Origin: Felis catus
Taxonomy: Eukaryota
Direction of reading: 5' to 3'
DNA: 64,000 bases
NCBI RefSeq assembly: GCF_018350175.1
Contig: NC_058375.1
Span: 45,508,001 to 45,572,000 of the forward strand
Made by a program: the position numbers and the translations under genes. Below the pieces are notes generated by a model. That model did not search any database, was not told where the DNA came from, and saw only the letters and a program-made list of their open reading frames with translations. Positions 15,726-57,539 of the stretch are shown piece by piece. Position 1 is the stretch's first letter. Each line of letters opens with the position of its first letter.

Positions 15726-15948
15726 GGGGCGCCTGGGTGGCGCAGTCGGCTAAGCGTCTGACTTCAGCCAGGTCACGATCTCGCGGTCCGTGAGTTCGAG
15801 CCCCGTGTCAGGCTCTGGGCTGATGGCTCAGAACCTGGAGCCTGTTTCCGATTCTGTGTCTCCCTCTCTCTCTGCCCCTCCCCCATTCATGCTCTGTCTC
15901 TCTCTGTCCCAAAAAAAAAAAAATAAATAAACGTTGAAAAAAAAAAAA
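15726..15948 (+). mobile_element. CAN-SINE, young felid subfamily
   Basis: Diagnostic GTGGCGCAGTCGG / CAGCCAGGTCACGATCTCGCGG; perfect 17-bp TSD AAGATGTTTGTACACCA. Confidence 0.98.
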
Positions 15949-30180: not shown

Positions 30181-30397
30181 TTTTTTTTTTTTTTAACGTT
30201 TATTTATTTTTGAGACAGAGAGAGACAAAGCATGAACGGGGGAGGGGCAGAGAGAGAGGGAGACACAGAATCGGAAGCAGGCTCCAGGCTCTGGGCCATC
30301 AGCCCAGAGCCCGACGCGGGGCTCGAACTCACAGCCCGTGCGATCGTGACCTGAGCCGAAGTCGGACACCCAACCGACTGAGCCACCCAGGCGCCCC
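30181..30397 (-). mobile_element. CAN-SINE (SINEC_Fc)
   Basis: TSD TCTGCAG(A/G)TGAAGTTTT. Confidence 0.98.
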
Positions 30398-39284: not shown

Positions 39285-41399
39285 CAAAAGAATTTTTGAA
39301 AAAAAGCTCTGGGGCCCAACCACCTGGCTTTGGAGTAAACAATGACTTTTAATCATGGGACGTTGGAAACAATAGATTAATTAGGTGGGGGGGAGGGGGT
39401 GGGGAAAGAGTCAAACTGGCTATTTAGGAATGCTGGTTGGCTAACTCACTTTCATCTGGTTACTTTAGTTCGAAATTGGTAGCTACCAGCGAACACATTT
39501 TGGCTCAAGGTTTTTCCAGTCTCTGGTTCCTCTCTGCATCCTACTCTAGCCGTGCTGAATGAACTACTGTGCATCCCCCTAAAATGCCCTTACCTCCCGC
39601 TTCTTTGTCTTTGTTCATGTTGGTCTGGGTTCCAAGTAGTGAGAAAAGAGAAGGACATGATCCCTGCTCTCAGAGGCCTATAATCTAACATTAACCAGAT
39701 TAACTAGACAAACGGGAACAAAAAAATGGTACAAAAAAACGGAAACATCGGAGGTTGTACATGCGACACAGGATCAGAATACTGTTTATGAGAGTAATCG
39801 TGGAAGAAATTGATTTGGTTATGGACGTCAGGAAGGCTTCTCGGAGTAGCATTGCCTCTATGTCCTTCCTCTTAGAGACAAAATCCTATTCGGCTACATG
39901 AAGCAGTTCAAATACCACGTCTGTGAAGCTGCCTAAGTCTCCATAAGCAAGACCATTATGCTTCCCTTTGAGATCTGTAGGGTTTTTGTTGTGGACACAA
40001 GCGTCGCTTCGGGGGCACTGTGTTATCGTCTTCAGCTGTGTCCTAGTCTGTCTCCCCACAAACTGTGAGCTCCTTGATAGCACAATACCTACTGTAGTCA
40101 TTTCTGCAGCTCCAACGGTACGAAATGGTGGTGAATTGAAATGTTGATCTGCTGCAAATTCGAGACTTTTTTTTTTTAAGTGAGTAACTTATTTCACAAT
40201 TAGAATCCAAATAATGTTCTGGTTCATGCTGTTTTTGCTCTTAATAAAACAAACACTTTTCTAACAAGTGTGCATAGGTGTTTTATACAATTAGTAAAAA
40301 TAAGCCATGTATGAAAATTCTAGACCCATTCAAGGAACGGGCCATAAAAGTCCTTCACTGGATTTTGAAGACATTCATCTGTAATTTCTCCATAAGCCCA
40401 AAGTCTGGCTGTCAAAATGAGGGAAGTAGTGAGGTTTCTTATTTCAAACATGAATTTTTATGATGTGGTCTACCTATGTGGGCAGGAACACTTAGGAAAA
40501 GGCAGGTGGGTTTCTCAGCATTAAAACAAATGAAAAGAATGTGAAGGTCTATCTCTCAGAAGTAAATACGCCAATTGCCTTTTCTACTCACAGCGTAGAG
40601 TTGTTACAAAACAGGGGAAGAATTATTTGGTTTCCTATCACTCTGGGTAGGAAAGTGCCTTGTACTTTGCCCATTCAGTTGTCTCCACCTGGACCATCTC
40701 TGCTGCTCATATCAAAATATCATGCATCCTTTAACCCCCACCTCAACCATATCCTTGTTACCAATGATTGGATGGCTGGAGTTGGCCCAAGGTCATAACG
40801 CACATCAGAGGCAAACTAAGAGAAAGAGAGGCCTCTAGCTACCCTGTCCCATATTCTTCCCTTCACATCAGGGTTGCCCAAAGGACACAGGGTCCTGAGT
40901 GCTTAGTAAATGTTATCTGTCTTCCTCTCCCTTTTTCTAGAGAAGCCTTAATCCCTGTTAACACCAAAGCCTATAGAAAATCCTGTCCGTTCAGCTGCAA
41001 TTTAGAAACCATTATTTTTTAAATTTAATACAGCATTCTCCAAGTCATTTGAGCCTTTCTCCTCCCCACAACATCCATTAACATCTCATAGGATTATTTT
41101 TCCAGAAAACACAATTTGGGAAACACTGTTCTCTATTATAAGTGCTCCCATGCACTTCCTCCTCACTTTTTAGATGGAGAGCCAGAAAGACAGTTGTTAC
41201 GGAAGTGAGATGCTAAGATAGTCGGATAATCACCTCTTTTTGAGGCTATGACACAACTCTATTATACATTTAAGTAAGAATCAAATCCAAAGAAAGTGTA
41301 TAAAGGAACGAAAAGGCAATTGAGGAGAGCAAAAAGAAATTTTCAGTTAACACATGTTCTACAATAAACATGTATTCGTCTTTAGTTTTAAAAATACCA

Positions 41400-41947
41400 G
41401 GGGCGCCTGGGTGGCGCAGTCGGTTGAGCGTCTGACTTCAGCCAGGTCACGATCTCGCGGTCCGTGAGTTCGAGCCCCGCGTCAGGCTCTGGGCTGATGG
41501 CTCAGAGCCTGGAGCCTGTTTCCGATTCTGTGTCTCCCTCTCTCTCTGCCCCTCCCCTGTTCATGCTCTGTCTCTCTCTGTCCCAAAAATAAATAAACGT
41601 TGAAAAAAAAAATTAAAAAAAAAAAAGATTCCTCTCTCTTTCTCTCTCTGCCCCTCCCCCAATGTGTGCACATGCTCCCTCTCTCAAAAATAAATTAAAA
41701 TAAATTAAAAATAAAATTCATATGAAGGGGCGCCTGGGTGGCTCAGTCAGTTGAGCGTCTGACTTCAGCCAGGTCACGATCTCGCGGTCCGTGAGTTCGA
41801 GCCCCGCGTCAGGCTCTGGGCTGATGGCTCAGAGCCTGGAGCCTGTTTCCGATTCTGTCTCCCTCTCTCTCTGCCCCTCCCCCGTTCATGCTCTGTCTCT
41901 CTCTGTCCCAAAAATAAATAAAAAACGTTGAAAAAAAAATTTTTTTT
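41400..41947 (+). mobile_element. Composite CAN-SINE insertion: SINE (41400-41626) + SINE 3' fragment (41627-41726) + SINE (41727-41947)
   Basis: Two near-identical young SINEC_Fc copies; single TSD AAAAATACCA at 41390-41399 and 41948-41957. Confidence 0.95.
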
Positions 41948-43501
41948 AAAAATACCATAAAATGATGAGAATTTTGTTATGAGGCTGAGCAGATCTTAAT
42001 AAAAATTTGCATGCGTAAAACTAGGAAAAAGTGACTTTTACGTTTTTAAGACTGGGAAACTATTACTACTCCCTCCCATTCAGGTCGATTCCCATCACTA
42101 CTTTAAATTAGTCGTTGGCTCACCCCCACAGAGGTGGTCTAGATTCCCTTGCCCTACTGAGAACCAGATGCAGAAGTCCACCCTGGTTGCTGAACTGGGT
42201 CTAAGCCCTGGAGATTCAGAAGCCCCACCACTGAAGTTGTTTTGTAACAACTCTACCCTGTGAGGCTCTCCCACAGAGGATCAACACAGAAGAAAAACAC
42301 CAAGACAGGTGAGACCGTGAGAAGTCCTGGGAAGTTCACGGGACTTGAAATCAACCTGGCTTTGAATCCTGGGTTTCTCTTATTGTCACAGACCCAAAAG
42401 TTCCATACTCTCTCTGAACTCTGTTTCTTTGTTTCGGAAAGAAAATGGCCAGAGTAAGAAATGATAGGATTGTTAGGAGGTTTAAACCTGCTGAAGTAGG
42501 TAACTCAGGTGTCCCCTGGTGCTTCTGTTCCTAGAGAGATCTTGAAAGGAATGGCTGGAGTCCCCTGTGAATGTCTGAAGCCCTCCTCCAGGGTCTGCAG
42601 TTCCAGGGGCAACCCTTGCTCATACGTATAGGATTCTAGGCTATTTTAAATCTGATTCCGTTTCACACAGCATTGAGCCCAATGTGAGATTCGGGCCCTT
42701 CCTCAATTTCTGCCGATAATAATAATCACCATCATCATAATAAAATCATACAGAGTTTGTGAACACAGTACTACTTATGGGCATCGTGGAGGGAGAGATT
42801 TACATCTAAAACATTAAGAACTTCGACATTAAGGTATATAGCCTGTTCTTAAACGTTCCTTGGCCTCCCTGCACAACACCAGGTGCCATTCCATGCCCCA
42901 TGCCAGCCAATTCTTCTCTCCTATGGCACTCTGCTCCTCCCCTCCCTTCTCTTTCTCTGGAGCAAAAACTAAATTCCTCTCACATTCTCAGGCAGAGGGG
43001 TTTGACTATTCTTGTGTTGCGGAGACTCCTGATAACGCCTTGCTTCCCAAATAGTGTATCAAGGTATTTTCATAAGAAAGACTGTTATCTCCCTGAGAGG
43101 AATTCTAGCCACTAAGGGCAGAAATAAATAAATCACTTCATTAGACGCATACCCAGAACCAGTAGTGGTAAGGAACACAGTGGACTGTATGTCTCGTCTT
43201 TGTTGCTCAGTATCTTGCCTAGCGGTGAGAACATAGGCAAGTTCCGTGAAGTCCGCGTCCTCACGTGTAAAATGAAGATCAGAGCCGCCCTAAACTCATA
43301 TGGTGTTTGAAATAATTAAATTAGTACATGTAAAAGACTTAAAACATTTTTTGGCACACGATAAGGTCTCAATAAAGAGGAGTTATTTACGTTCATTTAT
43401 GTATGTATTTATTTATTTATAGTTCTTTGCTTTTATTAAATAAGTGTCATAGGACTTTTTCTCACTGACATCATCTACTTTAAAGGCAGCCAATATCTCT
43501 C

Positions 43502-57333: not shown

Positions 57334-57539
57334 TTTTTTTTTTTTTTTTTTTTTGGGACAGAGAGAGACAGAGCATGAACAGGGGAGGGGCAGAGAGAGA
57401 GGGAGACACAGAATCGGAAACAGGCTCCAGGCTCTGAGCCATCAGCCCAGAGCCTGACGCGGGGCTCGAACTCACGGACCGCGAGATCGTGACCTGGCTG
57501 AAGTCGGACGCTTAACCGACTGCGCCACCCAGGCGCCCC
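57334..57539 (-). mobile_element. Young CAN-SINE lacking the AATAAA/terminator tail
   Basis: Perfect TSD TGAATGCAGCCTTT; body runs straight into pure poly(A). Confidence 0.98.

Follow-up and report, generated by a model that had tools for sequence, protein, structure and literature searches.

A single TSD around a composite of several SINEs is usually taken as proof that the whole moved as one RNA. The composite described here raises the question of whether this proof holds. It lies at 41386-41957 of the window, by which we mean the whole 64,000-nt stretch of Felis catus DNA (NC_058375.1) that was analysed. The parts named in the earlier note, SINE-1, the 3′ fragment of an older SINE and SINE-2, all inside one TSD preceded by TTTT, are indeed present in the sequence. 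TTTT followed by AAAAATACCA (41390-41399) occurs again with AAAAATACCA at 41948-41957, giving an exact repeat of 14 nt. Since the 10-mer AAAAATACCA is present in none of 52 unrelated young-SINE tails, this flanking repeat is not due to chance. The TTTT/AA formed by the TTTT at 41386 and the TSD is what we take to be an L1-endonuclease-type site.

SINE-1 and SINE-2 belong to the carnivore tRNA-derived Can SINEs, in a young felid subfamily that is presumably SINEC_Fc and that gave 67,076 head matches in the genome. The composite carries the marks of Can SINEs, namely a (TC)n tract, AATAAA, a T-run/A-tail and a tRNA-like head, the last detected by ARAGORN at 41405-41489 in SINE-1; this is the feature set given in those parts of PMC9599045 drawn on here. 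Among the 50 open frames of at least 110 aa in the window, 25 were compared with Pfam and gave 0 matches, and no function is implied for the composite locus. The parts are as follows, where R is a putative resident SINE and A and B are two SINEs of a donor locus.

41386..41389, plus strand: TTTT ahead of the TSD, read from the sequence
41390..41399, plus strand: 5′ TSD copy, 10 nt, read as R's own
41400-41626: SINE-1 overall, young carnivore type, A10-TT-A12 tail
41400..41555, plus strand: SINE-1 bases 1-156, young-type head and body, putatively from R
41556..41614, plus strand: putative zone of the left switch, out of R into donor SINE A, within which the point cannot be placed more exactly; it closes with an A10-TT tail (A9-TT in donor A)
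41615..41626, plus strand: A12 tail (A15 in donor A)
41625..41640, plus strand: the TSD proper to donor A (16 nt), 3′ copy
41627-41726: older-type SINE 3′ fragment and spacer
41641..41709, plus strand: 3′ half of the old SINE interrupted by donor A
41710..41726, plus strand: 5′ copy of donor B's TSD, with the partner copy at the donor only
41727-41947: SINE-2 overall, A9-T8 tail
41727..41755, plus strand: donor B head, bases 1-29 (T17, A23), 0 differences from the donor
41750..41755, plus strand: right switch zone GTTGAG, SINE bases 24-29, common to donor B and SINE-1
41756..41947, plus strand: remainder of SINE-2, base 30 onwards, a body of young type bearing T34 and a deletion of 2 nt, with the A9-T8 tail; putatively R's body and original 3′ end
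41948..41957, plus strand: 3′ TSD copy abutting T8, with no poly(A) past the TSD's own A5

As the earlier note stated, SINE-2 has no inner TSD at the composite locus. This was compared with a control pattern in which a young SINE stands straight after a SINE tail; among the first 30 of its 1,878 matches, an inner TSD, the sign of ordinary nesting, was seen by eye in 28 and 2 were ambiguous. It was also confirmed in the window sequence that no run of four or more T occurs within 41400-41939, before the run at 41940-41947. Runs of at least three T begin at 41386, 41519, 41639 and 41846, besides 41940-47.

SINE-1 does end in TT, and this had been read as a reduced terminator. When the tails of 63 young full-length copies from 1.2 Mb of unselected genome were surveyed, TT was found in 28, T>=4 in 8 and other lengths in 24, while 3 could not be parsed; in 30 pattern-picked copies, the numbers for TT and T>=4 were 10 and 7. 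Because TT is the commonest tail state of the family, it is an ordinary ending and no sign of a lost terminator, and we dropped terminator loss as a special feature of this locus.

Donor locus and limits of the copied tract

A search of the whole genome with the linker gave one second SINE-linker-SINE locus with other flanks (L002), 97% identical over the full linker length, and the next-best match among the 40 of 535 candidates that were scored was 88% over a partial length. A 24-mer of the linker, with one mismatch allowed, has exactly 2 copies in the genome. As one of the two is the donor, the suggestion of a new dimeric or composite SINE family was abandoned. L002 lies on the same 221.6-Mb contig as the composite, 9.10 Mb off, with the donor on the minus strand and the recipient on the plus strand; the chance of a donor at this distance or nearer is 0.0075 under uniform insertion.

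At L002, an old SINE, whose 5′ half is present and whose remnant TSD measures 11 nt, is interrupted midway by the young SINE A (TSD of 16 nt) and carries the older-type SINE B as an insertion at its end (TSD of 15 nt). Of A's TSD the window has the 3′ copy alone, and of B's the 5′ copy alone, and therefore the direction was from donor to window. The 5′ half of the old SINE, present at the donor, is absent upstream in the window. Ordinary stepwise nested insertion at the window was rejected, as there is no inner TSD and the 5′ half of the old SINE is not adjacent. Homology between donor and window ends at the SINE edges, and the right flank of the composite is single-copy; A segmental duplication, which should share unique flanks over at least 1 kb, was ruled out by the SINE-only homology and this right flank. 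The window copy of A's TSD agrees with the donor 5′ copy over 16 nt, against 11 for the donor's own 3′ copy. Thus the window keeps the older state of this TSD, which argues against misassembly.

The stretch 41641-41755 (115 nt), which includes bases 1-29 of B, is identical in window and donor. Beyond this point the identity breaks off: SINE-2 shows 0/29 differences from donor B and then 27 in 156 columns with gaps counted (Fisher, p = 0.009). From base 30, SINE-2 differs from SINE-1 at 3/156 and from donor A at 7/156 positions, and SINE-1 differs from donor A at 7/185. These values contradict the claim that about 550 nt were copied as one unit, both past base 29 of SINE-2 and on the SINE-1 side. 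The linker and B head together have 0 substitutions in 128 nt, compared with the 7/185 between SINE-1 and A (p = 0.044; p = 0.15 when only non-CpG substitutions are counted).

The alleles point in the same direction. SINE-1 carries G27 and T34 and has none of the donor A alleles T30, C89, C99 and G156, which are private or nearly so (1, 0, 0 and 2 of the 63 family copies, respectively). The SINE-1 alleles G27, T34 and T159 were found in 4, 3 and 3 of these copies, and T34 is common to SINE-1 and SINE-2. The head with both G27 and T34 occurs in 187 of 67,076 copies (0.28%). A G27/T34 subfamily was considered as the source and rejected, since this count is near the product of the single frequencies; among 30 G27+T34 copies written out in full, no further shared diagnostic change was seen.

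The right junction is of the type mediated by transposable elements, in register at bases 24-29 of elements in the same orientation and leaving a chimeric element. The switch zone GTTGAG presumably lies just 3′ of the A box, and the heads of donor B and SINE-1 are alike at 27 of 29 bases. The 33-mer joining the B head to the young body occurs 4 times in the genome, the other 3 being stand-alone SINEs. The left junction would fall between base 157 and the tail. The simplest parse of the sequence would be a resident head and body, a donor middle, and a resident body and tail, in which case the resident bases 30 to about 156-200 would be present twice. The repeated resident segment is the weaker part of this parse, as it depends on one shared CpG-type allele (T34) and four absent donor alleles. 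SINE-1 and SINE-2 differ further by T159, the 2-nt deletion and a 3-nt tail insertion, and at least two later changes are needed for these.

The earlier interpretation, read-through from a SINE-linker-SINE source, is therefore partly supported: the second locus with other flanks exists and the middle was copied from there. At the donor, the first run of four or more T from the start of SINE A is at offset 536, which is the T7 of B, so that Pol III read-through is physically possible. Ectopic SINE-SINE templated repair, which had been listed as an alternative, fits best of the readings.

Further composites in the genome

Among 30 loci with the G27+T34 head, one (L033/L053) has two SINEs inside one 9-nt repeat and no inner TSD. 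A whole-genome search with the inner junction of L053 found one other copy, L054, 2.27 Mb off on the same contig and strand, and the chance of this distance or less is 0.0019 under uniform insertion. At L054, a young SINE with its own TSD has inserted into the tail of an old SINE that carries an internal deletion. The second SINE of L053 matches that of the donor L054 at 197/200 positions, and the first head differs from the donor's at 12/66 and is without the 56-nt deletion. By sequence, L053 is again a foreign head joined to a donor middle, the same build as the main composite. The joint chance that both donors are so close is 0.0075 × 0.0019 = 1.4 × 10-5 under uniform insertion. L053 needs one switch only and, proximity aside, fits an RNA chimera too.

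No donor was found for the candidate composite L063 or for L098, in which two young SINEs are separated by an 18-nt spacer; the 63 unselected copies contained no other cluster of this kind. The donor was thus traced for 2 of 4 candidates tested, and both are in cis. A further locus flagged as a composite (L034) was discarded, since its first SINE has its own TSD. The locus L073 is possibly a case of local conversion between tandem SINEs.

Proposed route and rival explanations

It is established that the donor exists and is intact, which tract was copied, that the right junction lies at bases 24-29 and that there are two copies only. To account for them, we propose that a resident SINE with its own TSD probably received about 130-200 nt of the donor through two DNA-level homology switches. 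In the first step, the L1 machinery would have inserted an ordinary young SINE (R), whose insertion created the TSD. If a strand then broke or stalled in the 3′ part of R, it would have paired with donor SINE A, a sequence of 96% likeness, and copied A's tail, then the old SINE's 3′ half and then SINE B as far as base 29. As the head of B agrees with that of R at 27 of 29 bases, the strand would have come back to R (on the sister, the homologue or behind the fork) at bases 24-29 and continued. The outcome would be that R bases 30 to about 156-200 are doubled and the old TSD stands around everything. Replication template switching, ectopic SDSA and a MIR2-like double invasion would all serve as routes, which the sequence cannot separate. 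The left switch may be nearer to base 30, with a tract of ~325 nt, if the four private alleles of A postdate the copy.

The T8 end without an A-tail, the junction near the A box and the cis donors were counted in favour of the DNA route. The argument from the cis donors presumes that SINE retrocopies land regardless of the position of their source. As for the tail, in dog Can SINEs the daughters of terminator-bearing parents typically have T2-3 and long A-tails, and long T-runs accompany short tails in older copies, according to the passages of PMC9599045 on these points. By this comparison, the end of SINE-2 has the look of a settled copy rather than of a fresh daughter, a soft argument, since the ordinary copies L029 and L039 also have a T8-type end and no A-tail. 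A-tails erode and T-runs lengthen with age, which is a caveat on missing poly(A) as a test.

Plain read-through retrocopy, or 3′ transduction, was rejected: a single TSD and a source are found, but colinearity and a shortened terminator with poly(A) are not. In a modified form of this idea, the entire A-linker-B RNA, made by Pol III read-through, would have been retrotransposed, and gene conversion by SINE-1 would afterwards have replaced B between base 30 and the tail. The one TSD at an L1-type site, a donor without a T>=4 run until the T7 of B and the nearness of the SINE-2 body to SINE-1 (3/156) agree with this idea, and L073 may be an instance of local conversion in a SINE tandem. However, a conversion of ~170 nt over 27 differences is required, as are 7 substitutions between SINE-1 and A against 0 in 128 linked bases. 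No confirmed Alu transduction is reported among 118,489 AluY in the portion of bioRxiv 2024.04.29.591526 that concerns them. The daughter of a T7-terminated RNA is expected to show T2-3 and a long A-tail, whereas T8 and no A-tail are seen, and the copy would have had to land by chance (0.0075) at 9.1 Mb from where it was made. We consider this course of events unlikely.

Two RNA switches by the L1 reverse transcriptase, from a young SINE to the donor read-through RNA at base 29 and then to a young SINE, would yield the same chimera with one TSD. Template-switch chimeras made by LINEs are known, and 187 copies have the G27+T34 head. Nevertheless, the enzyme would have to switch twice and use two RNAs with a haplotype that is found in 0.28% of copies and gives no hint of a subfamily, the poly(A) tail is missing, and the location of both donors within 10 Mb on their own contig is left unexplained, so that we hold this reading to be improbable.

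Both RNA routes keep some weight because the ancestral single-SINE allele was not seen. Part of the region is contained in 23 runs from 11 studies, and 4 of the runs were compared with the left flank and SINE head. In these 4 runs, with usable left-edge cover in 1, no joint, empty-site or single-SINE allele was found. The other 3 were without usable flank cover, the SINE pile-up having swamped the stretch, and are no evidence either way. Contig X21, from an independent study, covers 41212-41416 with one other letter and runs 17 nt into the SINE, an overlap below the 31-letter bar for bridging.

On their common contig, donor (minus) and recipient (plus) face opposite ways, which invites the view that a 9.1-Mb inversion arose by crossover between R and B at bases 24-29 and that a later crossover between A and R restored the order. 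When worked by hand, these crossovers give the R head, A tail, linker, B bases 1-29 and R body exactly and leave the donor intact, and human inversions mediated by inverted Alus are described in the relevant part of PMC9675761. Against it, no inverted allele was seen and the literature search turned up no report of the inversion, crossovers over 9 Mb that have 29 bp of homology to work with are presumably rare, and L053 and its donor are on the same strand, so that this is not a general route; we regard it as very unlikely. A misassembly joining reads from two SINE loci, for which the 115 nt identical to the donor and the failure to obtain a linker-spanning read might speak, is hardly credible given the ancestral 16-nt TSD of A that the window retains and the donor has partly lost, the two A-runs that differ in length from the donor's, the single-copy right flank and the second locus of the same build (L053).

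The locus is a real chimera that can be traced, and an old TSD likely conceals a small SINE-to-SINE templated insertion in it; the genome has a second example. That a composite moved in one piece is not proved by one flanking TSD, and here the TSD was likely inherited from an earlier insertion. We tentatively suggest, with somewhat more doubt than confidence, that felids have a recurrent, overlooked class of TSD-enclosed SINE composites copied between SINEs megabases apart on one chromosome. If this is true, each composite is barcoded by its donor, and the set would map ectopic repair in the germline, including the distance, orientation and homology needed; to screens based on TSDs, it would look like SINE transduction. 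If such loci are common, they inflate the counts of SINE transduction and dimer birth, and they offer a countable record of germline repeat-to-repeat repair, with donor distance and junction readable from one assembly.

Comparison with known systems

In the literature searched, with subscription journals and supplements mostly outside its scope, no TSD-enclosed SINE composites with cis donors were found. Alu-mediated duplicative transposition was reportedly proposed by Bailey et al. in 2003 as a model for segmental duplications. As in that model, SINE-bounded donor sequence would have been copied into an acceptor SINE via homology; in contrast, the tract here is 130-200 nt and not kilobases, the SINE is a carnivore one, and part of the acceptor is apparently repeated.

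The Alu-Alu rearrangements of Balachandran et al. (2022, PMC9675761), in the portion considered here, resemble the composite in that same-family SINEs are joined at homologous positions, leaving a chimeric element each time, and in the short perfect overlap with a junction at the 3′ end of the A box, near which human Alu-Alu junctions peak. The classes given there are deletions, duplications, inversions, multi-copy CNVs and insertions that are ancestral deletions, whereas the composite is a small non-reciprocal insertion, all-SINE, inside an old TSD and with its donor megabases off.

MIR2, as far as it is set out in the sections used of Reitz et al. (2023, bioRxiv 2023.03.15.532751), likewise inserts sequence between two invading homologies with no further breaks. 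The yeast work detected it when the donors shared 500-1000 bp of 3′ homology, and in 0/46 events when they shared 70 bp. The composite has a terminal homology of 29 nt, although long flanks would be available from sister copies of R.

With 3′ transduction or read-through, known for L1 and SVA, the composite shares the one TSD and a downstream sequence traceable to its source; unlike these, its ends are not those of the source, there is no poly(A), and the source is in cis. The transductions treated in the pertinent passages of PMC13141329, PMC13756887 and PMC12350158 are those of L1 and SVA only. The screen of 118,489 AluY, by the part of Halabian et al. (bioRxiv 2024.04.29.591526) that describes it, left out candidates whose extra segment held another Alu, and therefore loci like the composite fall outside it.

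Finally, the templated sequence insertion polymorphisms of PMC5110952, in the sections that define them, are also short patches from a distant intact donor. Those of class 1 come with a TSD and poly(A) of their own, and those of class 2 have end-joining junctions, whereas the junctions of the composite are in register within homologous SINEs and its TSD is likely inherited.

The second composite and the nested donor locus

Besides the composite in the window, a second composite enclosed by a single TSD was found in the cat genome (G000), with its donor at a distance of 2.27 Mb on the same contig and strand.
L053:1292-1775 (G000:C2:57.716 Mb), same strand as L054: single-TSD composite
L054:1374-1780 (C2:59.990 Mb), same strand as L053: donor of this composite
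The L053 composite is built of a young head, followed by the old 3′ half and then the young SINE, both from L054.

The donor of the window composite holds three nested SINE generations at one spot, and its old SINE carries a short internal duplication in the head. The sequence after the nested SINEs is L1-like.
L002:1250-1990, minus strand: nested SINEs

Further candidates and a tandem control

L063, around 1310-1780: old and young SINE candidate
L098:9290-9770 (G000:C1:2.119 Mb), minus strand: two-SINE junction candidate
L073, around the match, minus strand: SINE tandem
At L063, one TSD encloses the old and young SINEs and no clear inner TSD is seen; a search for a donor found none, and the young SINE may simply have inserted into a poly(A) tail in the ordinary way. 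The two young SINEs of L098 are separated by an 18-nt spacer, the second lacks a TSD of its own, and the pair belongs to a cluster of at least five SINEs; searches for another copy of their junction found none. Both SINEs of the control tandem L073 have an unusual TC-tract variant in common, which may reflect local gene conversion between them.

SINE heads and tails

ARAGORN called four tRNAs in the 64-kb window.
15731-15815: tRNA call on a young SINE head
30307-30392: the same
41405-41489: the same
57450-57534: the same
All four coincide with young SINE heads, and none of them is a tRNA gene.

A genome-wide pattern search of G000 found 1,878 cases in which a young SINE lies right inside an older SINE's AATAAA tail. 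This result indicates that SINE tails are frequent insertion targets, and many potential two-SINE donors are thereby supplied.
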